Assembly (NCBI GenBank): GCA_050011195.1
Contig: JBEKJO010000012.1
Location: 895 to 64,894 of the forward strand
Direction: 5' to 3'
Source of the DNA: Verrucomicrobiota bacterium
Lineage (GTDB): Bacteria > Verrucomicrobiota > Verrucomicrobiia > Limisphaerales > UBA8199
Length of the DNA stretch: 64,000 bases
A program made the position numbers and the translations under genes. How positions within the stretch are numbered: the first letter of the stretch is position 1; every line of letters starts with the position of its first letter. Positions 1,081 to 12,448 of the stretch are shown here, piece by piece. The notes under the pieces were generated by a model, which was not told the DNA's origin, did not search any database, and saw only the letters and a program-made list of their open reading frames with translations.

Positions 1081-2721
1081 TCATCGCGGGCGCGCATGAT
1101 GCAACATCTCCATGATCTGGCGGTGACGGTCCATCAGCATGGGGTTTAGGGCTGGTCCCGATTCAGCCGAAACGGCTTTCCAGTTTGCGTGCTGGACGAA
1201 CGGGTCGGATAGATCAAGAAACCGGTTTTGAGATGGGTCCCAAATGGCGGTCCAATCGCAGACGCATCCATGGCGAGAGGAATTGGCGCTGCCAAGGCGG
1301 CGGACGCACTCTCCCCGAAGGTTCGCTCGGCTGATGGCGGGGGGGAACTCTCTCGCGTGCTCGAAATTATCCACGCCGGGGAAGTGGTGATGCAGAACGC
1401 CCGAGTGGTCGAGCTGGGAAAACAGCCCGGCGTTCCCCAGTTGGCCGAAGCGAGTGTCCAATTCGAACACGCAGCTGCGCAGGGCTTGAAACTTCCTGAA
1501 TCCGTCGGCGGAGGCGCCCCGCTGAAGCAATTGGGGCGCAAATTCCGGCAACACCTGTGCCAAAAGGGTTTCTTCAGCCCAAAGGACCTCGAGATCGGCG
1601 AAATCCGGCGGGAGCTTTTTCCTGGCCAGCAATCTTCCCGTCGCCTCAGCCACTGTGTTCCATTTTTGCACGGCTTGCCAATTATACCCCTGAGCCGCAA
1701 GAAAGTGGTTAAAGGTGCTAAAGCGGATCGCCCAGTCGAGGCGCGTGGCGACCGACCCCGGGCTGCCGGACTCCAGCAGCTCCAGCACGCGCCGCCATTG
1801 CCGACAAACTTCCCCCGCCCAGGTGGGCATAAAAGAAGCGTGCAGGTGCGCCTCGGCCAGCGCGAGGTAGCGCCGCTGGATGGCCAGAGCCGTGACAGGT
1901 TCGCCCCGGGCGGTCGTGACGGTCTGCTGGCAGCGAGGATCCCCGGCAAAAGCCCGCATCGCCTCCAGGGGCGCGGAGAGCTTGAGTTGATCCCCCGGCC
2001 GCAGCCCGGCCTCAATCATCGCCACGACGATGGCCGTTACCCCGACTCGCAAGAAAATCGCCCATTCCGAAAACAAGCTCTCGGAACATAAGAGGTGGAG
2101 CCGGTTGTACCCGGCTGAACTCAGAGACTCGTTCTTGGTGTGCAGCACCCCCCGGCTATGTGTCGATTCGCCTGACACCTCTGCGGCAAGGTGCGGCACG
2201 CGCGGCGAGAGCGTGAAGCGGATGCCGGGGTAACTGGAATCGAAGCCACCGGCGCCGGTGTAGATGAGGCGGCTGGCCAAATGCGGGATCAGATGCTGCC
2301 GAAACAGCCCCGGGTCAGCTTGGTGGAGGTAGGATTCATGCGATCCCCAAGTGCTTCCCGTTCCGCTGTAATCAACGTTTTGCCTGAAGAAGCAGGCCTG
2401 ACCAACGGCATTCTGTTTCTTGGTCAACTCTGCCCCCAGGTCTTCCAAGGTTTTCTCTCCGGCTTTTACGTAGCGAGCGGCGTCCCAGGGGTTGGCCAGT
2501 TCAGGACCGGCGAACTCCGGATGGTGCCCGCAATCAATGTAGAGGCGCGCGCCATTGGTCAGGAACATGCCGCTCGACTGGAGATCCGGGAGGTGGGTCA
2601 GTTGCTGGCGAGCGGTTTCCAGCAACCACCCAGTCGCGAGCGGCAGGGCCATGCGCTGGCCCTGCCGATCCAGCAGCGCGAACGCATACTCGGTCTCGAG
2701 GCCAAAGAGCCGCTCCGCCAC
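1081..2721 (-). CDS. Pup-ligase/deamidase family protein, PafA-like
   Basis: The GTG start lies 2 nt after the Pup-like stop and is preceded by AGGAGGGAGGA. Family blocks present: GLETEYAF, NGARLYIDCGHHPEF, GSTWGSHESYLH, RLHLLCSES, RLDWAIRF. The spacer between the first two blocks is short (~45 aa), as in PafA. Confidence 0.85.
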   Translation of the reverse strand: MAERLFGLETEYAFALLDRQGQRMALPLATGWLLETARQQLTHLPDLQSSGMFLTNGARLYIDCGHHPEFAGPELANPWDAARYVKAGEKTLEDLGAELTKKQNAVGQACFFRQNVDYSGTGSTWGSHESYLHQADPGLFRQHLIPHLASRLIYTGAGGFDSSYPGIRFTLSPRVPHLAAEVSGESTHSRGVLHTKNESLSSAGYNRLHLLCSESLFSEWAIFLRVGVTAIVVAMIEAGLRPGDQLKLSAPLEAMRAFAGDPRCQQTVTTARGEPVTALAIQRRYLALAEAHLHASFMPTWAGEVCRQWRRVLELLESGSPGSVATRLDWAIRFSTFNHFLAAQGYNWQAVQKWNTVAEATGRLLARKKLPPDFADLEVLWAEETLLAQVLPEFAPQLLQRGASADGFRKFQALRSCVFELDTRFGQLGNAGLFSQLDHSGVLHHHFPGVDNFEHAREFPPAISRANLRGECVRRLGSANSSRHGCVCDWTAIWDPSQNRFLDLSDPFVQHANWKAVSAESGPALNPMLMDRHRQIMEMLHHARPR

Positions 2722-2723
2722 GA

Positions 2724-2924
2724 CTACTGTCCTCCCTCCTGACGCATCGAGGCATTGAATGCCTGGCTATTGCTGGAGAGCGCGTTTTGGATCGCGGCGT
2801 CGGCCGCAGCGTGCAAGGCGGCCGCCTGACGACGCAGATCGTTAAGGCTGCTGCCGTCAGGGGTGTCGGCGGGTGGTTCGGGAGGACGGTTTGATTCGAT
2901 ATGGTTTCTTTCGAGTTGATTCAT
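2724..2924 (-). CDS. Pup/UBact-like small protein modifier (66 aa, C-terminal GGQ)
   Basis: MNQLERNHIESNRPPEPPADTPDGSSLNDLRRQAAALHAAADAAIQNALSSNSQAFNASMRQEGGQ. It is small and low-complexity with a helix-prone centre. Its C-terminus ..FNASMRQEGGQ resembles the mycobacterial Pup tail ..FVRAYVQKGGQ. It sits between two Pup-ligase-family genes, and its ATG overlaps the upstream stop (ATGA). Confidence 0.8.
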   Translation of the reverse strand: MNQLERNHIESNRPPEPPADTPDGSSLNDLRRQAAALHAAADAAIQNALSSNSQAFNASMRQEGGQ

Positions 2925-4660
2925 GGCTTTAAGTAGGAAGGTCGGTCGCAATCGGAATCAGTGCTCCAATTGGACTGAGGGTTTGTTGCCTTTGTGGTTT
3001 GGTAACTCGGCGAGAGCCAATACTGCCCGGTGGTGGAGACCGGGTCGGGGTCATGGTCGGGGGCGCCGAGCAGATCCAACGCTTCGTTCAGGTTTTGGCT
3101 ATGGTGAAACACGACCTCGGTGTCGTGCTGGGTGAAGGCCAGGGGATTGGCGAGCATGACCGTCCGTCGGATTTCAGCGCCGCCCTGCGAACGCAACTTG
3201 AACGTGATCTTGTCCCAGTCAACCTCCGCAACCGTCTCGGGATCGGCCAAGCGCAGCAGGTAGGCGCGCGTCCAAGCGCGAGTGTTGGCGGGGGGCTCCT
3301 GGGTAAATTTGCGAATTTGCTCTTCCGTCACGCCGGCGCGTTCCACGGACCCCACCTGATCGCACGCCCAGAACAACCCTTCCTCGAGATCGGCATACTT
3401 GAAATCCAGGTGCTTGATCTCGGGACTGCCCCAGTTGAGTTCCTGGTGTTGTTGCATGGCCCGCTCGAGCAACTGCAGCTTGAGGACCCAATCGAGGCGG
3501 GCCGCCAGCGCTCCGAAATCGCGACGGCTGAGTTTGTCCAGCGTATCAGCCCACAACGCCAGGATCTCACGCGCAGCGGGAACGATGCCGTCGCAACCTC
3601 CGCTGTCCACAAAGCGCGCGGCCTGGTCGAAAAAGCGCCGCTGCAGCTCAAGGGCCGTCACTTCTTCCCCCGTGAGCAGGCCGGCGCGAGCGGTGAGTGC
3701 GGGGTCCCGGCTCCAGCGGGCAACCGTCTCGACCGGGTCTTCCAGAATGAGATGGAGATTCCCATCGGTCTCACCCCGTTCGAGCAGGCTGAGCAGGATC
3801 TGCATCATGCCGGCCCGGAGAACAATGGAGGCAGGACAAAGCGTCGAATCAAAGAAGATGCTATGCAGCCGGGCAAACCGGTCAGCCGGGCACCCGCGAG
3901 CCGTGTAGCCTCCACACAGCGCTTCGTCCCGGCTGTTGACGAGCGGGCGATGGCAGGTGGTCTGGGTTCCCACCAAGCACTCGAAAAAGGAGGCTCTTTG
4001 AGACACTTCGTAGCAACCCTTACCCCCGTCCGTCGTCCTGCTCTCGGAGTTCACCTTGCCTTGCCCCGTGAGGATGATGCTGGAAACCTGAAACGAGGCC
4101 AGCATCAGCAACTGATGAAGACGACGGCGGAACAGCCGATCCCACGCCGTGCGCGTCATCTGCAAACTCATGTGCGAGCCGTAAGAATGTCCTAGCCCGT
4201 CTTCGTTATTGACGACGGCCACGAGCTTTACCTTTTCGGGCAGCCTCGCGTTGGCCGCCTGTAACGCCGATCGGGCGATCCGGAGCATGGCGTGACATGC
4301 GGCCGCAAAATCATAGGCGCTTAAGACCTCTGGGGAGCAAATTTCCAGGTGATCGAGGTCGATGTAAAGGCAGCCGCCGTTGGCCGGCAGATACTTCCTG
4401 CCCCAGTCTTGCGGATTGGTTCCAAACGGTTGGGACTGATGAGACTGGTCAAGCCAGGAACCAGAGTAGCCGGGAGTGGGTCCAGGCAAGCCTTCGACCT
4501 CACGCAAGAGCGCACGCGAGGCCATCGCCCCGGTGCCGTATTCACGTTCCAGCCCCAAGACAAAGTTGCCCAATTCCACATCGGCACCGAGAATCTTCGG
4601 CGCTGCGCCCGTGTCGCTCAGGCCCGGAGCCCTTGGTTTGGGGGATAGTTCGGTTGACAT
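2921..4660 (-). CDS. Pup-ligase/deamidase family protein, Dop-like (divergent active-site motifs)
   Basis: Family blocks present: GADVELG, NGGCLYIDLDHLEICSPE, GHSYGSHMSLQM, EVSQRASFFE, PLVNSRDEAL, FARLHSIFFDS, RLDWVLKLQLLE, PPANTRAWTRAY. A ~70-aa insert follows the first block (Dop-loop-like). The gene lies immediately upstream of the Pup-like gene, as in actinobacterial dop-pup. Confidence 0.85.
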   Translation of the reverse strand: MSTELSPKPRAPGLSDTGAAPKILGADVELGNFVLGLEREYGTGAMASRALLREVEGLPGPTPGYSGSWLDQSHQSQPFGTNPQDWGRKYLPANGGCLYIDLDHLEICSPEVLSAYDFAAACHAMLRIARSALQAANARLPEKVKLVAVVNNEDGLGHSYGSHMSLQMTRTAWDRLFRRRLHQLLMLASFQVSSIILTGQGKVNSESRTTDGGKGCYEVSQRASFFECLVGTQTTCHRPLVNSRDEALCGGYTARGCPADRFARLHSIFFDSTLCPASIVLRAGMMQILLSLLERGETDGNLHLILEDPVETVARWSRDPALTARAGLLTGEEVTALELQRRFFDQAARFVDSGGCDGIVPAAREILALWADTLDKLSRRDFGALAARLDWVLKLQLLERAMQQHQELNWGSPEIKHLDFKYADLEEGLFWACDQVGSVERAGVTEEQIRKFTQEPPANTRAWTRAYLLRLADPETVAEVDWDKITFKLRSQGGAEIRRTVMLANPLAFTQHDTEVVFHHSQNLNEALDLLGAPDHDPDPVSTTGQYWLSPSYQTTKATNPQSNWSTDSDCDRPSYLKP

Positions 4661-4672
4661 GCGAGGCTTCTG

Positions 4673-6340
4673 TTACACGGGGTCGAGGTTGAGATAGCGC
4701 CGGGCGTTGGGCACCTTGCGCACCACAGGCTCGACGCTGACGACATCGACGTCCTGCGGGAGGTCAGCGAGATAGGCATGAACGTTATTGGGCGTGAGCT
4801 GGGTGCGTAACCGTTCTATGCCTTCGATTACGGCTTGCTCCATATCGCTGGCGTTGAGACCCGGCTCGCCGCCGCGAAGTTCGCGAACGAAAGCACGACG
4901 GCAGGCGTTCTCACAGATCTGCATGAAAAACCGGCCACTGGCCAGCTCGCGCGCGCTGATCGTGCGCTCTTTGCCGTCGCGGAATCGGATGCGGCAAATA
5001 GCATTATCCGCATTGGGCGCGTAGAGGAGCGAAACGGCGGCCTCGATTATCTCGTCGCGCGTGCCCGCGGCCAATTCACCGTTTGGCGAGAAGGGCAGTG
5101 ACGGCGGCAAATGTATGTTCAGAATGGCTTTGGCAGCGCACTGGTCCGGGCGACTCACCTGGACCTCCACCGCAAACCGGGCGAGCAGAGCTGGGTCCAG
5201 CAAATCCTTGCGATTGGTGGCGGCGATAATGGCGATGTCTTTACGGTCTTCGAACCCGTCCAGTTCCGCCAGGAGCGCCGCCAGATGTTTGTCACTGTGA
5301 ATGTTGGCGAAATTTCCCCGGGTCCGGGCAATGCTTTCAAGCTCGTCCAGGAAGAGGAAGGCCACCCCGTCGCGGGCCGCCTCCCGCAAGATTTTGAAGG
5401 TGTCCCGGATAGCTTTTTGGGTCGCGCCGACATAGGGGGACTCCCAGGCCGCCGGTTTAATCACGCCGAAGCGAACCCGGCGGCCGCTCAGGCGCCCGAT
5501 GTCGCTCGCCACGATGCGAGTCATGTGGGTCTTGCCGCAACCCGGCGGCCCGACCAACAAAATGGAGTTCCGCCCGCTGAGCCGGTAGCGTCGGGCCATT
5601 TCAGGGGCCACCAGTAGCGCGCTCAACGTGGTCCGCATCGTCTCATAACTGGCATCCAGCCCCCCGAGGAGCTCCCGCGTCAGGCTCGGGACTTCCTCGA
5701 GCATGAACTCCTTTCCCTGAACGTTCTCGACCTTGTCAAAGGCCAGCCAGATGGAGCGGTCGAATCGGACCAGATCCCCGGGCTGGAGCGCAAGGCTAGC
5801 GAGAGGGTGCGCCGGTTGCAGCACGATTTCATCATCGCGGCAGTTCACAACCAAATGGCCGTCACTGGTTCGGCGGTCGAATACACCGACCTCGCCGCAC
5901 CGTGGCAGACCATCGGGGGAGACGCCGGTGATCACATTCAATTCGTGGTTGAGGAAGACTTGGTCGCCCGGGCGCAGGGACTCGACCTCCAGTTCGGGAG
6001 CGAGATTGACCACCCGCCGGGCGCCGCCCTGGTGTACGATCGCCCGCGCCCCGGCCCCGGTGGACAGCGGTCCCATGAAAACCGCTGCCACCCAGGGCGT
6101 GGCCAGAACCCTATCCAGCGTTTCTTTAAGTTTCGCTTGGAGTCGCTGGGCCTCGTGAAGCCCGATCCTGGCCAGGTCCAGGTGTTCCAGGAGGTTTCGG
6201 TCAACGAAGTCCGCCAGGTCGGCGGATTCCAGGCGCAGCGCCTTGAGTTGCGCTAGCCGCTGGTCCAGGCTGAGATCGGCCTTGAGGCAAAAGTTGACCA
6301 GTTCTGTGGCGAAAGGATCAGGGGTGGCAGGACGTTTCAT
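4673..6340 (-). CDS. AAA+ ATPase, Mpa/ARC/PAN-like unfoldase (coiled coil, OB-like domains, AAA module)
   Basis: Coiled-coil N-terminus (LDQRLAQLKALRLE...LQAKLKETLDRV). OB-like segments (GDQVFLNHELNVI; GDLVRFDRSIWLAF). Walker A GPPGCGKTH and Walker B FLFLDELES. The start is set at the internal ATG 6340; the ORF-track start 6409 would overlap the upstream gene by 92 nt. Confidence 0.85.
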   Translation of the reverse strand: MKRPATPDPFATELVNFCLKADLSLDQRLAQLKALRLESADLADFVDRNLLEHLDLARIGLHEAQRLQAKLKETLDRVLATPWVAAVFMGPLSTGAGARAIVHQGGARRVVNLAPELEVESLRPGDQVFLNHELNVITGVSPDGLPRCGEVGVFDRRTSDGHLVVNCRDDEIVLQPAHPLASLALQPGDLVRFDRSIWLAFDKVENVQGKEFMLEEVPSLTRELLGGLDASYETMRTTLSALLVAPEMARRYRLSGRNSILLVGPPGCGKTHMTRIVASDIGRLSGRRVRFGVIKPAAWESPYVGATQKAIRDTFKILREAARDGVAFLFLDELESIARTRGNFANIHSDKHLAALLAELDGFEDRKDIAIIAATNRKDLLDPALLARFAVEVQVSRPDQCAAKAILNIHLPPSLPFSPNGELAAGTRDEIIEAAVSLLYAPNADNAICRIRFRDGKERTISARELASGRFFMQICENACRRAFVRELRGGEPGLNASDMEQAVIEGIERLRTQLTPNNVHAYLADLPQDVDVVSVEPVVRKVPNARRYLNLDPV

Positions 6341-7418
6341 GAATATCAGTACCGATGATGGACGCCGCCTCGACCACCGGCAGCGGCCGGGCGGTGTCGG
6401 GTTTAACAATGTGAAAACCGCGTTGAGTAATCACCGCCCGATCCCAGCCATACATGGTTAGTTTCATACCCGAGAAGGTATTGGTGACCAGGAGGGCGAT
6501 GCAGTGGGGTTGCCAGAAGGCGACGCGATGCAAATCACAGTCCGCCCTGGAAAAGAAGGGCGTGTTGAACGGGCATTGCTCCTTGGCTTCGGGTGAGCAG
6601 TCTTTATTGCAAAAATACCGGGCTGGGTGATTGTGAAAAAATCCCACGATTTGCTCGGCACTGCGGCGCAGATCCAGCGCGGCCTGAGCGGCAGCCCAGG
6701 TGTCCGCCGTAAAGGAGAGCCGCGTGGATTCCGATAAGGTATGGCGCGCGGGGATCTGCGCGGTGACTTTCAGGAAGAGTTCCTGCGTGCTCCGATCCTG
6801 GTGCATCTGACCGATGAGCACCGCCCCGACCTCGACGTTCTTGGCTCGCTCCGTCAGCGCCAGCACCTCATCAATCACTCCTTGCGGCACGAAAACCGGG
6901 ATCAGACCGGAACCGACATCCCCAAAGGCGATGGACCGCTCGAGCTCGTCATTGATCGAGCCTGGGGTCAGTGCCGTCGGCACAGGCACGTCCTCGATCT
7001 CAAGTGGATCCGGTGCCCTGGCACCTTGATCGTCGGATGCCGGGAAAGCCAGCACAGCGTAGGTGAACAGTTCACCAGATTCCAGTTTCTTCTGGTCCAC
7101 AAGGGCGTCTCCGATCCTCATGGCGCCGGGCTTAAAGAAGCTGTTCGGAATGTCCGCCGTAATCGTGGGCATTGTGTCTGTCCGGGCGGTCACGCGCAGG
7201 CCCTCGACGTACGGCGCTCCAGCCGTGGCGTGCCAAAGGGGCTGAATATGGATTTCCGCCTCGGCGGCCGACTTCGGGTTTAACCAGCGACACAGGGCGG
7301 TGAAGCGGCCCCATTCGGCGGCGGGCACGAAGTCCAGCTTCGCCGGGAATTGGCCCAGCAACGCCCCGCTCTTGGCGCGGGACATATCGAAAAAGTAGCG
7401 GAAGGATTGACGCGGCAT
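6318..7418 (-). CDS. JAB/MPN+ (JAMM) metallopeptidase with an uncharacterised N-terminal domain
   Basis: C-terminal JAMM elements are NVEVGAVLIGQ (Glu), FFHNHP (HxH) and FFSRADCDLH (S..D). The N-terminal ~200 aa has no motif I recognise. The start is set at ATG 7418; the ORF-track start 7574 would overlap the Ubl gene by 119 nt. Confidence 0.8.
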   Translation of the reverse strand: MPRQSFRYFFDMSRAKSGALLGQFPAKLDFVPAAEWGRFTALCRWLNPKSAAEAEIHIQPLWHATAGAPYVEGLRVTARTDTMPTITADIPNSFFKPGAMRIGDALVDQKKLESGELFTYAVLAFPASDDQGARAPDPLEIEDVPVPTALTPGSINDELERSIAFGDVGSGLIPVFVPQGVIDEVLALTERAKNVEVGAVLIGQMHQDRSTQELFLKVTAQIPARHTLSESTRLSFTADTWAAAQAALDLRRSAEQIVGFFHNHPARYFCNKDCSPEAKEQCPFNTPFFSRADCDLHRVAFWQPHCIALLVTNTFSGMKLTMYGWDRAVITQRGFHIVKPDTARPLPVVEAASIIGTDIHETSCHP

Positions 7419-7455
7419 AGGAAGAGGGGCGGCGGAGACCGCCGCCCCGTGTCCT

Positions 7456-7746
7456 TCAGCGGGTGCTCCCGGCGTCCACGTTCGGGTGAAGGGTAATCTG
7501 GTCGTTTGGGACCAACACCTCGCCAACCACTTCAGAGGAGTGGGCGTGCCGACCCAGGCGGTCAACCCGCGCATGGTAAGTCAGCGCCCGCCCGACGGAA
7601 TCCTGCGACGGGAGTTGGAGTCTCGGCAGCAGGTCCTGGACGAGATCCCCCATCGTGGAATCCATCGGTACCCGCCGGGCGCGCACACGCTTTTGACCGG
7701 TCAGGTCGGTGGCCGTGATGTTGGGAACAAATAATGGCTGTATCAT
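7456..7746 (-). CDS. Ubiquitin-like (beta-grasp) protein, 96 aa
   Basis: ATDLTGQKRVRARRVPMDSTMGDLVQDLLPRLQLP parallels ubiquitin [32 protein letters not shown]. The distal QITLHPNVDAG parallels STLHLVLRLRGG. It lies within the E1/E2/JAB cluster, and its ATG overlaps the upstream stop (ATGA). Confidence 0.7.
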   Translation of the reverse strand: MIQPLFVPNITATDLTGQKRVRARRVPMDSTMGDLVQDLLPRLQLPSQDSVGRALTYHARVDRLGRHAHSSEVVGEVLVPNDQITLHPNVDAGSTR

Positions 7747-8639
7747 AATTTCCTTTCGGTTGTTTGTTGGCTATCCTCGCTGTTGCGGGGGCCACCCCGG
7801 ATCGCGAGAAAGAGTTTGGCAGCTTCTTCATGCTGCAAAATGTCAACCACGGGGGCGCAAAGATCGGCGCCGACCGAGAGCGCTTCCAGCGCAGAGCGCA
7901 ACTCCGCCGCGGAAACCGGCGCCTCGAACAGGACTTCCAGTTGAGCGGCGCCACCGCTCTCATCCTCGGCGACAATGGCCCGCGCCAGCCTAAGCCGCGC
8001 GTTGGCCGTCAATAGCAAGGCAGAAAGGCCCTCTCGGCCAGGTGTGGGCAACGAGTCCCACGAGGCGAGTTCGGTACTGACCCGCACTGTCCCGGCCTGC
8101 GCTGTGAGCGAGGCTGTGTGCGCACCCCGACGGGTGTCCAGAAGAACGGCACAACGATCAGCCCGCCGCGAAGAGCACTGCCAACCAGCCGCTTCGACCA
8201 GCTTGGCCAAGTCCGGTGGCGCCACCTCGGGGGTAACGGTAACTGGATTTTCATTAGGGTCGAGCGTCAGATGCTGGGCGGCGGCGAACGCCCGGCATGC
8301 CTGGTCGAGCCGCAGGGAAACATTGCTTTCTGCCTCGACGGGGATTTCCGCCCGGAGCGACAAGTCGCTGTCCAGATTGGAGGAGAACTTTACGAGACCC
8401 GTCAAACTGGCGTTGACTTTAAGAAGGTCCCAGCGCGAGGGAGGAGTTCCGGGGGAAAATGTCCCCGCGAGAAGGAGAAACCCATCCCTAAGCTGCACCA
8501 GCAGCGGCGGCGCCGAAGAATCCTTGGGGCGGCCCCGCCAGCGGTCCGGAGCGACCGGCTCCACGGACTCCATTGCGGCCTGCAACGCAGCCTGGCACCG
8601 ACTCGCGTCGGCTACCGTGTGAGACTCGGATGCGATCAT
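7743..8639 (-). CDS. Hypothetical protein (298 aa) with two similar halves, embedded between the E2 and Ubl genes
   Basis: A long ORF translationally coupled at both ends by ATGA overlaps. The two halves share a pattern: LLVQLRDGFLLLAG...LLKVNASLTGLVKF...LSLRAEIPVE versus CAVLLDTRRGAHTASL...LLLTANARLRLARAIV...LEVLFEAPV. I recognise no family. Confidence 0.6.
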   Translation of the reverse strand: MIASESHTVADASRCQAALQAAMESVEPVAPDRWRGRPKDSSAPPLLVQLRDGFLLLAGTFSPGTPPSRWDLLKVNASLTGLVKFSSNLDSDLSLRAEIPVEAESNVSLRLDQACRAFAAAQHLTLDPNENPVTVTPEVAPPDLAKLVEAAGWQCSSRRADRCAVLLDTRRGAHTASLTAQAGTVRVSTELASWDSLPTPGREGLSALLLTANARLRLARAIVAEDESGGAAQLEVLFEAPVSAAELRSALEALSVGADLCAPVVDILQHEEAAKLFLAIRGGPRNSEDSQQTTERKL

Positions 8640-9172
8640 GGCTCACTCGCCTCCTTAACGTCACGAACCTGTGCCAAATAATCTGGCCGTTTCAACGGCC
8701 GGGGGTCTGTGGGGAACCGGCTCTGGTTGTTGCGCGCCCAGGCACAAGCCTCTTTGTTTAAACAGTTGTCTTCCCGGGGATTGAATTTGCGGTACACGAT
8801 AATCTCGAAGATTTGGTAAAGAATATCCACCAGGCCTGTGCCGGGTTGCAACCGGCCGATGCAGATGGCCCCCGCCGGGCCAAGAATATTTGGGTGAAAG
8901 ACGTTCGTCGGACCCAGCCAGGTGAGCACTTCTGGTATCGCGGCCCGTCGAAAGAAGTCGGCGGGAAAGAAAATGCCGACAATGAACAATCCACCTTCGC
9001 CGAGGCGCCCATCGCGGTTCTGGACAACCCCTTTGCAGCGGAACTCGGCGATATATTGTTGTGGGGTCGAACCCGCTGCCGGCATCAGCCTGAGGATGTC
9101 GCTTTTCGCGGCCAGCGCCCGGCCATCGGCGAGCTGACACTCCAAAAAGTTGCTGAATGATTTATCGTTCAT
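8636..9172 (-). CDS. E2-like ubiquitin-conjugating (UBC-fold) protein
   Basis: FIVGIFFPADFF...LTWLGPTNVFHPNILGPAGAICIGRL matches the UBC signature (FP..YP-like flap, HPN triad, catalytic Cys in the ICI/ICL context). ATG 9172 is preceded by GGAG 4 nt upstream and lies 10 nt after the E1 stop. Confidence 0.8.
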   Translation of the reverse strand: MNDKSFSNFLECQLADGRALAAKSDILRLMPAAGSTPQQYIAEFRCKGVVQNRDGRLGEGGLFIVGIFFPADFFRRAAIPEVLTWLGPTNVFHPNILGPAGAICIGRLQPGTGLVDILYQIFEIIVYRKFNPREDNCLNKEACAWARNNQSRFPTDPRPLKRPDYLAQVRDVKEASEP

Positions 9173-9182
9173 GGGACTCCTT

Positions 9183-10277
9183 TTAAGAACGGCCAAGCTC
9201 GAAAAAGTTAATCTGGCGCCGCTCGCCTATGGCAATCACGTCCGCCGGTTGGAGGCCCAGCGCGGACAAAGGATGGGCCAGGTCTCCGGGCGAAAGCGCG
9301 TCGCGAGCAAGGACGTTTGCCAGGCCTGTGCCCGTCGGTGACATGCGCCGGCCACACTTGGCGCAGGCCTGCGCCGCGGCACCGAACCTACCTTTAAGCC
9401 GCAGGACTGACCGCCGCGCACCGCACGAGCAGGCGAGTTCGCGCACAAACAGTTTGCCAGGCACTTCCAAGACGCCGGCGGCCTGGGATTTCGAGTTCGA
9501 GCCGTCTGACCCCAGGGCGAAGGCCTCCGCTACGGTGATTCGCCGTGGGCTCCGGCGTAAAGTGCGGATGTTGAAAGCGCCGTGGTCCAAGCGACACGTC
9601 TCGCGCCGCTCGAGGCGCGTCACGAACAGCTTTCGCGAGAAGGCATCATAGACTAACTCGCGGTTCAGCGATGCCTGGTCGAATTGCCCTGAGAGCAGCC
9701 TGGCGAATTCCGCGGTTTGGAGGCTGGCCGCCAGCGACCCCAGGTATGCCGGCGAATTCGTGGGGGGAGGCGTAAACTCCGGCTGACAAGGATAACTCTG
9801 CTCCGAGGCGTAATCTGCACTGTTCAGGGCGCATTCGTAGCAGGGGGCCTTTTGCCCCTGGGCGAAGGTGGAAATTCGTACCAGCCAAGGCGCGCTGACG
9901 CCCGAGTCTATCCAGAAAGGGATGGCCAGCTTACGGAACGCATAGTTGGCTACCATCCGGGCGCGCTTGGAATCCAAGGCAGTCAACAGGACGTCGCAGC
10001 GAAACAATCCCAACGGCAGATTCTCGATATCGGTAACCAGATGCTCGATTTGAAGCATGGGATTGATCGCTTGCATCATTTCGGCCACAGCTTGTGCCTT
10101 GGGCCGGCCGGCGTCCGCAGGGTGCCAGGCCTGAGTCTTCGTGACCACGTCCCGGTCAATAACCCGCACGCGACCCACGTTTGGGAGCGACGCTACCAGA
10201 AGCCCAAGGAACCTGCCGATCAGGCCGGCCCCGATTTGCAGCAAGTCTATGGGTTTGGAATGGTGGATGTGATTCAT
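9183..10277 (-). CDS. E1-like ThiF/MoeB/UBA-family adenylyltransferase with a C-terminal Cys-rich extension
   Basis: Nucleotide-binding IGAGLIGRFLG, IDRDVV, ALDSKRARMVAN, a CYEC pair and YPC. The C-terminal ~110 aa carries CSC...CAKC. Its ATG overlaps the upstream stop (ATGA). Confidence 0.85.
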   Translation of the reverse strand: MNHIHHSKPIDLLQIGAGLIGRFLGLLVASLPNVGRVRVIDRDVVTKTQAWHPADAGRPKAQAVAEMMQAINPMLQIEHLVTDIENLPLGLFRCDVLLTALDSKRARMVANYAFRKLAIPFWIDSGVSAPWLVRISTFAQGQKAPCYECALNSADYASEQSYPCQPEFTPPPTNSPAYLGSLAASLQTAEFARLLSGQFDQASLNRELVYDAFSRKLFVTRLERRETCRLDHGAFNIRTLRRSPRRITVAEAFALGSDGSNSKSQAAGVLEVPGKLFVRELACSCGARRSVLRLKGRFGAAAQACAKCGRRMSPTGTGLANVLARDALSPGDLAHPLSALGLQPADVIAIGERRQINFFELGRS

Positions 10278-10819
10278 AGACCATTAGGGGACCAACGGAA
10301 GCCAATCTCCGAATCGGTTGATTGATCGCAGAGCGGGCATTGCGTCGTTCCCGGATAACGCCAGCACGGCAATTCCTCCGTTTGGTGGCACCACGCCCCG
10401 CACGCGGGACAGGCGACCGCCAGCGAACCCCGTTCGATCGGCTTTCGGCAGCGGGCACAGAAAATCTCCTGGGCCGCCCCCGGAAAGGCAACGACTTGCG
10501 GCAGACGTTCAGTGGTGAAGTACAGCCGCTGGCCGTTTCCCAGGCGAATCTCATCCCGATCTCGGAGCGTGGTCGAACCCAGCAGTGCCTTGCGACCGTT
10601 CACCCGCAGCCGGCTTTCTGGCGCCACGACCAAGAACCAATGTTCGGTAGATTCATGAACCATGCGCACGAGTAGCTCGCTGGCGATGGGGCTAGTCGGG
10701 GAGTCGGCGCGCCGGATATACGGCTCGGCGGCCGCAAAGCGGTAGGTCGAACCGCCCAGCGGCTGGACCGCCCAGCACTGTCCGCTCTCACTCGTCTTCT
10801 GGATCCAGAGATGCGCCAT
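10274..10819 (-). CDS. FHA-like domain protein with a C-terminal Cys/His-rich (RING/PHD- or double-zinc-ribbon-like) domain; candidate E3
   Basis: The FHA-like core is HWFLVVAPESRLRVNGRKALLGSTTLRDRDEIRLGNGQRLYF. The C-terminus reads CARC-x12-CPAC-x3-CH-x6-C-x8-CPLC. It is the first gene of the co-directional cluster. Confidence 0.65.
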   Translation of the reverse strand: MAHLWIQKTSESGQCWAVQPLGGSTYRFAAAEPYIRRADSPTSPIASELLVRMVHESTEHWFLVVAPESRLRVNGRKALLGSTTLRDRDEIRLGNGQRLYFTTERLPQVVAFPGAAQEIFCARCRKPIERGSLAVACPACGAWCHQTEELPCWRYPGTTQCPLCDQSTDSEIGFRWSPNGL

Positions 10820-10942: not shown

Positions 10943-11719
10943 TCAGCCTCCTCGGGAGCCTTCCTCCCCTGAACCTCCCCGCGCGCCGAGCACTGAATCA
11001 AATAAGCCGGCCCAAAACTTCTCCGGCGGTTCCGCGGCGGCGTCCAGGACTATATTGCTCACGGGAGTCGAAAGACGGTACCCCGCCAGCCTTTGCCCGG
11101 ACTCAATCAGGTTCGGATTGAATCCCCGCTCGCGCAGACGACGGCGCAGCTTGGCTACACACCGATAAATGTCCGATTCGATCGGGTAGGGCCAGCGGCC
11201 GGCCAACAAGCCACCTTCAGCGGTTAATTTGAGGATGATGTCCAGGATGGCTTTGACCGGCAGGAAAGCTGGCAACTGGTTCCTGCCGGCTTTCGACGCT
11301 GTGGCAGCGCACTTCGCCAGCCAGGCCAATATCAAAAGCAGGGTGTGCTCGCGACGGTTAAGTTTAATGGGTGGCTTGGTGTTAATCTTCAGCTCGCGAT
11401 GGTCATTTGTCCCCAACCGCCCACGAATCTCGACCACATCAATGGTGAGGTAGTCGCCGCTACGGATTTGGTCCGGCACGGGCTGGTGGGACACAGACGA
11501 GGAGAGCTGGGGGTGGGTGTCGGCCGCCTCCTTCGTGTTCGCAGGGGAAAGTTCCGGAAAACCGGCAATCAGCTCATCCGGCTTCAGGGAGGGTTTGGCT
11601 GCGGGGTCCGACGGAGCGCTCCCGCCGCGCCGGCAGATGCGTTGCAGGAGCTTGACAGCCAGGCACAGATGCCATAAAGCCAGAGCCGCGAGGGTCTTTG
11701 ATTTGCTTGTGTCAGCCAT
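10943..11719 (-). CDS. Winged-helix (OmpR/PhoB-type C-terminal effector domain) transcriptional regulator without a receiver domain
   Basis: LNRREHTLLLILAW...ESDIYRCVAKLRRRLRERGFNPNLIESGQRLAGYRLS matches the trans_reg_C pattern. ATG 11719 is preceded by GGAGGA about 8 nt upstream. Confidence 0.7.
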   Translation of the reverse strand: MADTSKSKTLAALALWHLCLAVKLLQRICRRGGSAPSDPAAKPSLKPDELIAGFPELSPANTKEAADTHPQLSSSVSHQPVPDQIRSGDYLTIDVVEIRGRLGTNDHRELKINTKPPIKLNRREHTLLLILAWLAKCAATASKAGRNQLPAFLPVKAILDIILKLTAEGGLLAGRWPYPIESDIYRCVAKLRRRLRERGFNPNLIESGQRLAGYRLSTPVSNIVLDAAAEPPEKFWAGLFDSVLGARGGSGEEGSRGG

Positions 11720-12448
11720 GAGTTTTTTCCTCCAGTGTTTTGGGTTATCTTCTCTTGCGGAACCGTGGGGGGATTTTTTTGCACAGCTCGCGCAACCCAC
11801 GACCGATCCCATTCCGCGCAGCGGCCCACTCGCCGCGTCGGAACAACAAGCACCAAGCGTGCAGAATGATTCTGCCCCAGGGGCGCTCCGCCAGCCATAG
11901 TTGCAGCAAAGCCCGCCGCCGGGGCGTAGTGGCACGCCGGTTGCCCAGAAGCGCAACCCCAGGCACACGAGCGGGGCGTCCTCGTTTCATGCTCCCTCCC
12001 CTGCGTCGCGCGCTGGCACATCACTCGCTCCCGAGCTTGACCTCAGGGTTGTTCCGCAGATGCCAGCCTGGTGCTCGTACCGCGGCGGCAAACCCCTGCA
12101 ACGGCAACAAAGCCAAACCGCGCACGATTCCAACAGAGTTGGGGAAGCACCGAACCACGGCCCAACAGCCCCAAGGACGGGGGTGGGAGCGGCTGGCGCT
12201 GGCGCGGGAGATCCCGCGCCACCGAATGGCCCCGGGTGTCGCGCAACCCACGCCGGGGCGCCACCGCGCCGGCGCACCCAGGCGCGACTCAAGGCTACTT
12301 GGCTGGAAGCGCCAGGACGGACTGACCGCGGCAGCGCGGCAACCCGATACCGACCGCCTCGCCGGTGCGCGAAGCCCGAAAGCGGACAGCATGCCGTACC
12401 GCTACGTGAAGGTGCGGCGCCTGTGGGCGGAGCTGCCGCCGTAGGCTC

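Follow-up and report, generated by a model that had tools for sequence, protein, structure and literature searches.

A predicted bacterial ubiquitin-fold protein with a conserved Ala-Gly terminus and a probable disposable tail, encoded in a ten-gene cassette of ubiquitin-type and Pup-type genes

In the window analysed here, a stretch of 64,000 nucleotides from a Verrucomicrobiota genome, the gene at 7456-7746 probably encodes the precursor of a ubiquitin-fold tag (Ubl) within a conserved bacterial E1–E2–RING–JAMM conjugation system, in which the Ser-Thr-Arg following Gly93 would be a disposable cap. Judged by its gene content, the cassette around it joins ubiquitin-type and Pup-type tagging systems in one operon. 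The pairing of Ubl and Pup has been noted once in print and never studied: in one 2020 paper it takes up a single sentence, which very probably refers to a cassette of this type. That paper describes neither the Ubl with its Ala-Gly terminus and tails nor the YbjN-like gene and the gene order, all of which are given here, and it contains no experiments; the distribution given here is also wider (Verrucomicrobia-like, Acidobacteriota, Gemmatimonadota and Armatimonadota).

Results

The genes of the cassette overlap or abut, and follow the order RING–E1–E2–YbjN-like–Ubl–JAB–Mpa-like AAA+–Dop-like–Pup(GGQ)–PafA-like:

10274..10819, minus strand: putative RING-type E3, 181 aa (Pfam Prok-RING_1, E=0.0023, 18.3 bits, below the cut-off of 29.1)
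9183..10277, minus strand: E1-like adenylating enzyme of the ThiF/MoeB family, 364 aa (Pfam ThiF, 2.6e-16)
8636..9172, minus strand: E2-like enzyme with UBC fold (Pfam UQ_con, E=4.9e-6, 26.6 bits, just under the cut-off of 27)
7743..8639, minus strand: YbjN-like protein, 298 aa (Pfam YbjN, E=1.5e-4, 22.5 bits, cut-off 22)
7456..7746, minus strand: predicted Ubl precursor, 96 aa (ATG at 7746; TGA at 7456-7458)
7468-7746, within the Ubl gene: codons 1-93, the predicted mature part
7468-7470, within the Ubl gene: Gly93
7459-7467, within the Ubl gene: the STR tail
6318..7418, minus strand: JAMM/JAB (Rpn11-like) metallopeptidase, 366 aa (weak Pfam Prok-JAB/JAB match)
4673..6409, minus strand: Mpa/ARC/PAN-like AAA+ ATPase (Pfam AAA, Prot_ATP_ID_OB_C and Prot_ATP_ID_OB_N)
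2921..4660, minus strand: Pup_ligase-family protein, Dop-like (Pfam Pup_ligase, 1.8e-82; closer to the depupylase/deamidase Dop)
2724..2924, minus strand: Pup-like small protein, 66 aa, with the C-terminal end MRQEGGQ
1081..2721, minus strand: Pup_ligase-family protein, PafA-like, with a C-terminal extension (Pfam Pup_ligase, 1.9e-77; marginally closer to the ligase PafA)

Translation of the minus-strand ORF at 7456-7746 gives MIQPLFVPNITATDLTGQKRVRARRVPMDSTMGDLVQDLLPRLQLPSQDSVGRALTYHARVDRLGRHAHSSEVVGEVLVPNDQITLHPNVDAGSTR*, in agreement with the preliminary description of this DNA, which had reported a 96-aa protein ending in HPNVDAG and then STR. A ribosome-binding site, AAAGGAAA, lies ahead of the start codon, whose ATG overlaps the stop codon of the YbjN-like gene upstream (ATGA). 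It has 35 close homologues, and the family at large, annotated as 'hypothetical protein', comprises at least 321 clusters (50% identity, E<=1e-3) and has no model in Pfam or NCBIfam. Because homologues exist, gene order is kept in distant loci and the AF2 model reaches a pLDDT of 91.7 (pTM 0.80), this is a real gene and not a chance ORF. A search for RNA runs containing the gene found none.

The model follows the order beta-beta-alpha-beta-beta-3/10-beta, which is the topology of ubiquitin, with strands at residues 6-13, 20-27, 54-61, 66-68 and 83-90 and helices at 32-43 and 74-77; residues 94-96 fall below a pLDDT of 50 and are disordered. In Foldseek comparisons with the PDB it matched ubiquitin, SUMO, NEDD8, ISG15, the Caldiarchaeum ubiquitin (6fnn_C) and BilA (8tyx_A), with a probability of 1.00 and TM-scores of 0.56-0.68 (query) and up to 0.82 (target). 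All of the best 50 matches were Ub, SUMO, NEDD8, ISG15 or Ubl-domain entries, none of these 50 being described as ThiS or MoaD, and viral ubiquitins were matched as well. A beta-grasp fold, which had been named beforehand as a check on the ubiquitin reading, is thus what the prediction returned. By sequence, the Ubl found no match in Pfam, NCBIfam, PADLOC or, with phmmer, among PDB entries, and an hhalign comparison of an 89-sequence family profile with human ubiquitin was not significant (probability 0.66%, E=0.086). The earlier threading of the protein onto ubiquitin agrees in register with the predicted structure, in which helix 32-43 aligns with ubiquitin helix 23-34, and the same segment alone was paired by hhalign, but at E=0.086 the likeness is not significant at the sequence level. 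Since all sequence-only searches gave nothing, the resemblance to ubiquitin rests on predicted structure and genomic context, and it is on the predicted structure that we confidently regard the Ubl as a ubiquitin-fold (beta-grasp) protein.

Ubiquitin-like proteins ending in something other than a free Gly-Gly are familiar from other systems. UFM1 ends in VG-SC and is trimmed by cysteine proteases, QbsE ends in GG-CF and is trimmed by the JAMM enzyme QbsD, and CysO/Mec+ is a further pair of a Ubl with a JAMM enzyme; QbsE and CysO are sulfur carriers that operate without an E2 or E3. A non-Gly penultimate residue is compatible with E1 activation, and bacterial JAMM enzymes do trim short caps off beta-grasp carriers. 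In the present family, A92 and G93 are invariant throughout the close orthologue set (>50% identity), whose tails measure 0-10 residues and six members of which terminate exactly at AG. Family-wide, AG is found in 168 of 182 members, 60 of them without a tail and 108 with tails of 1-27 aa, and across several phyla, 27 GTDB-species loci show the same pattern of AG and tail. The Ala-Gly ending had initially been called atypical, but it is the norm of the family; the orthologue comparison proposed at that stage, by contrast, came out as anticipated, with the last Gly kept (invariant in the close set) and the tail variable (0-27 residues). Such an invariant terminal Gly, at which many members stop exactly, is characteristic of proteins activated at their C-terminus. 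No lysine is conserved, so there is no sign of chain formation: at position 19, 47% of members have K and 32% have R, and 16 of 148 have no lysine at all. The alignments also lack any conserved stretch of 7-10 columns. Two long proteins from the search of representatives, P0112 and P0179, were considered as poly-Ubls and rejected, their 17 and 20 stretches of ~3 bits each being spurious repeat matches.

The JAB gene begins 37 nt downstream of the Ubl gene. A 418-aa ORF at 6318-7574, which overlaps the Ubl gene, was discarded as an artefact of an upstream in-frame ATG, and the start was set at the ATG at 7418 because the resulting 366 aa agree with the homologues. The product contains an N-terminal domain of ~130 aa, which had no Pfam match even at E<=10, and a Cys-rich insert between the HxH and SxxD motifs. 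Its JAMM motif E..HxH..SxxD is intact, with E196, H262, H264, S290 and D293 invariant and C270, C274 and C282 nearly invariant in 34 sequences. The best Foldseek match of its AF2 model (pLDDT 84.9) was CsRpn11 (6fnn_B, 1e-7), solved in complex with the Caldiarchaeum ubiquitin; Rpn11, BRCC36, CSN5 and AMSH were also among the top matches. Pfam, the invariant motif and Foldseek thus all uphold the prior assignment of this next gene to a JAMM peptidase. A JAB with intact motif also accompanies the tail-less Ubls of loci L004, L007 and L009, so the enzyme cannot be there only to mature the Ubl, nor be defined by that task; deconjugation is probably what it has been conserved for, and maturation would be an additional function. 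In every related locus, the JAB gene directly precedes the gene of the proteasomal-type AAA+.

Upstream of the Ubl, the E1 carries CxxC twice, and the alignment shows a conserved Cys behind the first of these pairs that is a candidate thioester Cys; its NCBIfam matches are to ThiF, MoeB and UbaA, all below cut-off, and in the PDB it matched MoeB (1jw9_B, 3e-6). In the E2, H93, P94 and N95 (the HPN motif), I96 and then C104 are invariant in five distant orthologues, and the same number of distant orthologues of the RING-like protein conserve its C-terminal pattern C-x2-C...C-x2-C...H...C...C-x2-C (C4HC3-like). The N-terminal domain of the latter looks FHA-like by eye, and found no Pfam match even at E<=10. 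The YbjN-like gene always stands between E2 and Ubl in related loci; profiles of the YbjN-like protein and of the E2 matched no PDB sequence, and the literature on UBact and YbjN offered no lead.

The downstream half shows the layout of a pupylation module, in that a small protein ending in GGQ or GGE lies between the Dop and PafA homologues and adjoins the Mpa-type AAA+. The four proteins of this half all fall far short of the NCBIfam cut-offs of the Mpa, Dop, Pup and PafA equivalogs. The AAA+, which probably starts not at the listed TTG but further downstream, near 6340, scores 253 bits with pup_AAA 'proteasome ATPase' (cut-off 505); the product of 2921..4660 scores 234 bits with Dop and 190 with PafA, and that of 1081..2721 scores 215 bits with PafA and 205 with Dop, in each case below cut-off. 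For the Pup-like protein there was no Pfam or NCBIfam Pup match. Its orthologues end in GGQ or GGE, one of them in SGQ, and the orthologue from L004 aligned by BLASTP with M. tuberculosis Pup (a hand-entered copy of the sequence) over the C-terminal 39 aa (E=4e-5). As to a 20S particle, no proteasome Pfam family was found within ±10 kb of the cassette in loci L001-L009.

Related loci were searched for with the E2 alignment. The order of the cassette recurs in metagenome-assembled genomes (MAGs) of Verrucomicrobia-like bacteria, Acidobacteriota, Gemmatimonadota, Armatimonadota and Planctomycetota, where all ten genes hold their order at 29-77% Ubl identity and with unrelated flanks; a further set of 34 genome loci shows it as well. 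In locus L038, the Ubl half stands without the Pup half.

Discussion

Several known systems resemble parts of the cassette. In the operon of Caldiarchaeum subterraneum, too, a single-domain Ubl, an E1, an E2 and an Rpn11-like JAMM enzyme are each encoded by a gene of their own, next to one for a small RING-type E3 (PMC6043591, PMC5654768). Of the features of that type, a separate Ubl, a ThiF-type E1, an E2 with HPN and Cys and an Rpn11-like JAMM are present here, and the RING-type E3 has a putative counterpart; moreover, CsUb and CsRpn11 are among the best structural matches of the Ubl and JAB of the window. However, the Caldiarchaeum system is archaeal, its Ubl has a Gly-Gly instead of an Ala-Gly terminus and a precursor extension of 9 aa instead of 3, and its operon has no YbjN-like gene, no extra N-terminal domain on the JAMM enzyme and no Mpa/Dop/Pup/PafA module; with phmmer against the PDB, no sequence similarity between CsUb and the Ubl of the window was detected. 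BilABCD is, like the cassette, a bacterial operon of E1, E2, Ubl and JAB, in which BilA has one residue past its Gly97 and matches the Ubl structurally (8tyx_A). Yet it consists of four genes, without a RING, a YbjN-like gene or a Pup module, and its E2 bears a CEHH motif (PMC11354881) where that of the cassette has a canonical HPN...Cys. With ten genes, a RING-like protein, an HPN E2 and weak generic PADLOC matches, the cassette was not counted among BilABCD systems, nor among the Bub/6E/DUF6527 operons, which have the DUF6527 serine peptidase BubE and Ubl-E2 or E2-E1 fusions (PMC11601603): the ten proteins contain no DUF6527 match and no fusions. The downstream half in turn has the same order as the actinobacterial mpa–dop–pup–prcBA–pafA locus (OB-domain AAA+, Dop-like, GGQ protein, PafA-like), and the C-terminal helix of its Pup is recognisably similar to the actinobacterial one; it differs in that the cassette has no 20S genes and that its Pup module is physically joined to a ubiquitin-type E1/E2/E3 module.

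The enzymatic steps, the protease responsible for tail removal and the connection of the two modules are inferred in the model that we propose here. The cap would be removed, most probably by the Rpn11-like JAMM peptidase, leaving a free Gly93 carboxylate that the ThiF-type E1 would adenylate and then hold as a thioester; the Ubl would next be handed to the Cys of the HPN-type E2, and steered by the RING protein onto amino groups of targets, from which the same JAMM enzyme would also strip it. The Ubl module would thereby form one half of a ten-gene operon whose other half (Mpa-like AAA+ unfoldase, Dop-like, Pup-like and PafA-like proteins) would be a pupylation system, and both halves most likely serve a single pathway by which proteins are unfolded or turned over in a regulated way. 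A more specific arrangement can be imagined, which we put forward only tentatively and consider rather unlikely in its details: a two-tag targeting machine like the 26S proteasome cap, in which RING E3 and E2 would attach the Ubl to chosen substrates, PafA would add the disordered Pup as a threading handle for the Mpa-like ring, and the JAB would strip the Ubl at the ring during pull-through. If so, bacteria would already have joined ubiquitin-type selection to unfoldase engagement, in an operon that lacks a 20S of its own.

A different purpose for the same genes, of about the same modest plausibility as the two-tag machine, is anti-phage defence of the Bil or CBASS type, where the Ubl would be put on phage proteins, the Pup/AAA+ half would dispose of these, and the tail would keep the Ubl inert until infection activates the JAB. 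All experimentally characterised bacterial E1/E2/Ubl/JAB operons act in phage defence so far (PMC11601603, PMC10557695), and related Ubl systems were placed among conflict systems by Kaur et al. 2020. Furthermore, the patchy spread over at least five phyla with unrelated flanks suggests horizontal transfer, and in one locus the cassette has IS21, Mu and rve transposase genes as neighbours. On the other hand, PADLOC returned no system-level match for the cassette and only weak generic matches to JAB, E1-E2 and AAA, the cassette was absent from viral contigs (E2 scan) and from plasmids (Ubl tblastn), its neighbours in the window are of the housekeeping type (signal peptidase, response regulator, glnA, amtB) and form no defence island, and pupylation machinery serves proteostasis elsewhere.

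Less probable still, the Ubl could be a genuine E1/E2-conjugated tag whose JAB acts solely as a deconjugating isopeptidase, possibly on the AAA+ ring like Rpn11, while an unrelated cellular peptidase or carboxypeptidase trims the tail. The presence of a JAB next door is by itself no proof that it is the maturase, and another peptidase could do the trimming. The intact JAMM motif in the three loci with tail-less Ubls speaks for this division of labour, as does the proteasomal-type AAA+ gene that directly follows the JAB gene in every locus, and with about one third of the family being tail-less, the conserved selective reason for the JAB would not be maturation. Against it, CsRpn11 cuts precursor CsUb precisely behind its C-terminal Gly and cuts conjugates too (PMC6043591), and BilC, which likewise does both jobs, pre-processes BilA, whose Gly97 is not adenylated while Ala98 is present (PMC10557695); JAMM trimming of an archaeal and of a bacterial Ubl is thereby documented. 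In addition, the cassette contains no other conserved peptidase, and tails of 1-27 unrelated residues imply that the protease must recognise the body of the Ubl, as a cognate DUB does. Our analysis thus supports JAB-dependent maturation of the Ubl.

That the Ubl is instead a beta-grasp sulfur carrier of the ThiS/MoaD kind, or a non-covalent adaptor docking on the AAA+, never conjugated and with an irrelevant tail, is very improbable: although the E1 scores best with ThiF/MoeB models and sequence searches did not link the Ubl to any conjugated one, nothing described as ThiS or MoaD is among its best 50 Foldseek matches and no Pfam or NCBIfam match assigns it there, it is invariably encoded together with an E2 with HPN and Cys, a RING-like protein and a JAB of the Rpn11 kind, the neighbours are E2, RING, JAB, AAA+ and Pup genes with none for thiamine, molybdopterin or siderophore biosynthesis, and the terminal Gly is invariant and often the exact C-terminus.

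Conclusions

In experiments so far, phage defence (Bil, CBASS, Bub) is the only function to which ubiquitin-type conjugation in bacteria has been linked, while pupylation has been linked to the actinobacterial proteasome. The cassette appears to combine both kinds of tagging with an unfoldase of the proteasomal type in one operon, whose order is kept over at least five phyla. With this coupling in a single operon, a long-standing question can be put directly to the test: did ubiquitin-like tags in prokaryotes already supply an ATP-dependent machine for unfolding or degradation? The Ubl offers a handle for such work, being a short protein with a confident model and a defined predicted site of processing, Gly93↓Ser94, and the approximately one third of its relatives that already end in the 'mature' form could serve as natural controls. 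Beyond this, defining the Ubl family would improve the annotation of many soil and peat genomes.

The Ubl gene and the operon around it

The 96-codon reading frame ending in AG-STR that the preliminary description had proposed is present on the minus strand at 7456-7746, with an ATG at 7746 and a TGA at 7456-7458 on translation; its product closes with ...QITLHPNVDAG-STR, Gly93 being encoded by 7468-7470 and the three-residue tail by 7459-7467. A Shine-Dalgarno sequence (AAAGGAAA) precedes the ATG, and the ATG and the stop codon of the gene upstream overlap as ATGA, which points to translational coupling. Chance reading frames of this size are common here (16 kb contain 125 that reach 50 aa or more; 62 % G+C in the window). 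That the Ubl is a real gene follows from its 35 close homologues (none functionally named, any label reading 'hypothetical protein'), from the 321 clusters at E<=1e-3 (183 at E<=1e-10) that a profile recovered among 1.84 billion cluster representatives, from the conserved order of its neighbours, and from an AlphaFold2 model with a mean pLDDT of 91.7. Two plus-strand frames within it (7486-7734 and 7506-7718) are presumably spurious. The gene sits in a tightly packed, ten-gene minus-strand operon, hereafter the cassette.

Genes of the cassette and the reading frame upstream of it
10943-11968 (-), upstream reading frame, C-terminal part ...IYRCVAKLRRRLRERGFNPNLIESGQRLAGYRLSTP, OmpR/PhoB-type winged-helix appearance by eye
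10274-10819 (-), RING-like protein, 181 aa, Prok-RING_1 E=0.0023, C4HC3-like ligand pattern conserved
9183-10277 (-), ThiF-type E1, 364 aa
8636-9172 (-), UBC-type E2, UQ_con E=4.9e-6, HPNI and downstream Cys invariant
7743-8639 (-), YbjN-like protein, 298 aa, Pfam match just at threshold
7456-7746 (-), Ubl, 96 codons
6318-7418 (-), JAB/JAMM peptidase, 366 aa, starting 37 nt past the Ubl stop
4673-6409 (-), AAA+ protein with proteasomal-ATPase OB domains, best NCBIfam model pup_AAA 'proteasome ATPase', 253 bits
2921-4660 (-), Pup_ligase-family protein, nearer Dop (NCBIfam: Dop 234 bits, PafA 190 bits)
2724-2924 (-), Pup-like small reading frame, 66 aa, ending ...MRQEGGQ
1081-2721 (-), Pup_ligase-family protein, marginally nearer PafA (NCBIfam: PafA 215 bits, Dop 205 bits)

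A complete mpa–dop–pup–pafA-like module (1081-6409, minus strand) directly follows the JAB gene on the same strand. Its Pup-like protein went undetected by the Pup models of Pfam and NCBIfam; orthologues end in GGQ, GGE or, once, SGQ, and one of them matched M. tuberculosis Pup over its C-terminal 39 residues with E=4e-5. The AAA+ C-terminus (4673-4800, minus strand) carries a motif conserved across the related loci L001-L043, LPQDVDVVxVEPxxRKV...[YF]-[LF]-x(2-5)-A, which resembles, without being identical to, the GQYL/HbYX docking motifs of proteasomal ATPases; a 20S core is not encoded nearby. The YbjN-like gene invariably lies between those for E2 and Ubl; its product had no match among PDB sequences, and might be an adaptor or chaperone.

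A predicted beta-grasp fold with a conserved glycine and a labile tail

The modelled topology of the Ubl is that of the ubiquitin beta-grasp, with five strands (residues 6-13, 20-27, 54-61, 66-68 and 83-90) and two helices (32-43 and a short one at 74-77); tail residues 94-96 fall below pLDDT 50. Foldseek against the PDB returned 89 matches at E<=1e-3, of which the best 50 were Ubl domains, SUMO, ubiquitin, NEDD8 and ISG15, including Caldiarchaeum subterraneum ubiquitin (CsUb) solved with its Rpn11 homologue (6fnn_C, 6fno_D) and a bacterial Ubl–deubiquitinase complex (8tyx_A); viral predicted structures again yielded ubiquitins. The AlphaFold and Foldseek comparison suggested in the preliminary description hence came out as a beta-grasp protein of the Ub/SUMO/NEDD8/ISG15 type. 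No entry described as ThiS or MoaD occurred in the top 50, and a ThiS/MoaD-type carrier was rejected. By sequence, the Ubl matched nothing in Pfam, NCBIfam, PADLOC or a phmmer search of the PDB, and an hhalign comparison of human ubiquitin with a family profile of 89 sequences was not significant (probability 0.66 %). The single segment that it paired, VPMDSTMGDLVQDLLPRLQLPS with a 22-letter human ubiquitin segment, has the register of the AF2 model and of the threading first proposed, for which the support is structural and not at the sequence level.

All 36 sequences of the close orthologue set (50-93 % identity) share A92 and G93. Six stop at G93, others go on with AR, GIR, GAR, GKW, AAC or GETS, and one has ten residues more. 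A single sub-clade of more than 70 % identity mixes tail-less and tailed homologues (P0024, P0025, P0028 and P0030 versus P0027 and P0032), which shows the tail to be evolutionarily labile. In the wider family, 168 of 182 short members have Ala-Gly at the profile positions of A92-G93; 60 of these stop exactly at the glycine and 108 continue for 1-27 residues, mostly 2-5, with Gly as first tail residue in 53. Species-representative genomes of several phyla gave the same mixture (27 loci with a readable Ubl end: 11 tail-less, 16 tailed). The expectation of a conserved last Gly and a varying tail was therefore borne out, while the description of Ala-Gly as atypical was not: judged from these alignments, Ala-Gly is the hallmark of the family and no peculiarity of the window gene. 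An invariant terminal Gly followed by a dispensable, unconstrained extension reads as the signature of a tag that would be activated at Gly after trimming.

Lysine is scarce in the family (median two per protein, none in 16 of 148 members), and Lys occupies position 19 in 47 % and Arg in 32 %. Since the lysines are few and unconserved, a conserved chain-forming lysine is not indicated. The window Ubl has a single lysine, K19, and the window Pup-like protein (2724-2924) none; such lysine-poor tags may reflect avoidance of self- or cross-modification.

The JAB peptidase and a proposed maturation step

As first noted, the gene directly downstream encodes a JAMM peptidase, and its motif is intact: E196, H262, H264, S290 and D293 are invariant in 34 JAB sequences, down to 30 % identity. 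We placed its start at ATG 7418 because homologues are 365-368 aa long, lengths that rule out a 418-aa frame (6318-7574, minus strand) overlapping the Ubl 3' end in another frame. In the AF2 model (pLDDT 84.9), the catalytic domain best matches the C. subterraneum Rpn11 homologue (CsRpn11) solved with its ubiquitin (6fnn_B, E=1e-7), followed by eukaryotic Rpn11, BRCC36, CSN5 and AMSH; Pfam recognised nothing in the N-terminal domain of ~130 residues, which is modelled with confidence. An insert of ~24 residues between HxH and SxxD (residues 265-290), with C270, C274 and C282 nearly invariant, is possibly a structural metal site or docking element.

From these genes, in which the catalytic motifs of JAB, E1 and E2 are all intact, we infer the following steps. 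The STR cap would have to be removed before the Gly93 carboxylate could be adenylated, and the neighbouring JAMM enzyme would remove it; E1, E2 and the RING protein would then conjugate the Ubl to targets, from which JAB would additionally release it. Cap removal and JAMM trimming have direct experimental precedent, as both were shown in the two nearest structural relatives, CsRpn11 and BilC, the JAB of Bil anti-phage systems. The CsUb precursor of 87 aa is cut by CsRpn11 exactly behind the C-terminal Gly-Gly, and conjugates are substrates of this enzyme too (PMC6043591); Gly97 of the Bil Ubl, BilA, sits in the E1 active site, unreactive while Ala98 is present, until BilC trims BilA (PMC10557695). 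Loci with a tail-less Ubl still hold a JAB with an intact motif, which suggests that deconjugation is probably its conserved role; maturation appears to be a second task in tailed lineages, including the window.

Conservation, distribution and coupling of the two halves

On contigs with Ubl homologues (L001-L009; Ubls 77 %, 50 %, 43 % and 29 % identical to that of the window) the same ten genes occur in the same order between unrelated flanks, and no proteasome family was found within ±10 kb. An E2-alignment scan of one genome per GTDB species yielded 34 loci, all from metagenome-assembled genomes (MAGs), labelled Acidobacteriota in the majority, Gemmatimonadota, Planctomycetaceae, Armatimonadota, Eisenbacteria and others. 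Mapped with HMMs of the ten components, the cassette was complete and ordered in 16 (including three with the Pup frame spotted by eye), and contig-truncated loci kept the order as far as the contig end. Two were exceptions: a Planctomycetaceae locus (L038) has the Ubl half and lacks the AAA+/Pup half within 7 kb, and another (L016) runs from E2 onward, RING and E1 being unrecognisable upstream. Frameshift-like breaks, which cost L033 and L037 the Ubl C-terminus and split AAA+ and E1 in L025 and L037, probably reflect faulty assembly or decay.

Neither a scan of viral contigs with E2 nor a tblastn search of plasmids with the Ubl recovered the cassette; in L007/L008 it is bordered by IS21, Mu-transposase and rve integrase genes. 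The window sequence originates from peat and wetland metagenomes, and among named Ubl homologues the nearest belongs to a Verrucomicrobia MAG. The frame at 10943-11968, without significant Pfam match, has a conserved counterpart only in the close relative L001 (67 % identity, residues 170-328), being absent from cassettes of other phyla, and may be a lineage-specific regulator. The remainder of the window (13162-64000) looks chromosomal and housekeeping in character, with genes for a hemerythrin, an AstE/AspA-like deacylase, signal peptidase I, a response regulator, a 1823-aa subtilase, two T2SS-F proteins, glnA adjoining amtB, a 1989-aa pro-kumamolisin/Ig-repeat protein, an ABC-3 permease and two TonB-dependent receptors; ARAGORN found no tRNA genes there, and of the large reading frames scanned with Pfam none matched a proteasome subunit or a mobile-element family.

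So strict a gene order from phylum to phylum strongly suggests joint action of the Ubl and Pup halves. Since the JAB gene always immediately precedes the AAA+ gene, JAB is Rpn11-like and Pup serves Mpa as a disordered handle for threading, a 19S-like arrangement is an attractive hypothetical model, in which the Ubl would provide selectivity and Pup engagement, with JAB stripping the Ubl at the ring.

Relation to known systems

In actinobacteria, the order mpa–dop–pup–pafA occurs with 20S genes; the last four genes of the cassette share this order, minus the 20S genes. With the Caldiarchaeum and Bil systems the cassette has in common a predicted precursor Ubl, a putative JAMM maturase/deubiquitinase, E1 and E2, and it fits the prokaryotic E1–E2–RING–Ubl–JAMM class, with the RING putative (Prok-RING_1 E=0.0023). 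A Bil operon is ruled out by the ten genes, the RING-like protein, the HPN motif of E2 in place of CEHH, and PADLOC, which gave weak generic matches only; a Bub/DUF6527 operon was likewise rejected.

What the preliminary description observed is confirmed, and the interpretation offered there is supported by all available computational tests. Ubl–Pup linkage as such is not new, a 2020 paper having mentioned it in one sentence; the literature covered, with Burroughs 2011 and 2012 outside its scope, describes neither the Ubl family, with its Ala-Gly ending and its tails, nor the YbjN-like component, the invariable order of the ten genes or the distribution seen here, and it holds no experiments. 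A tailed Ubl is nothing unusual for systems of this known kind; what makes it interesting is the surrounding system, a widespread, unstudied variant in which tagging of the ubiquitin type and of the Pup type is tied to an unfoldase of the proteasomal type.
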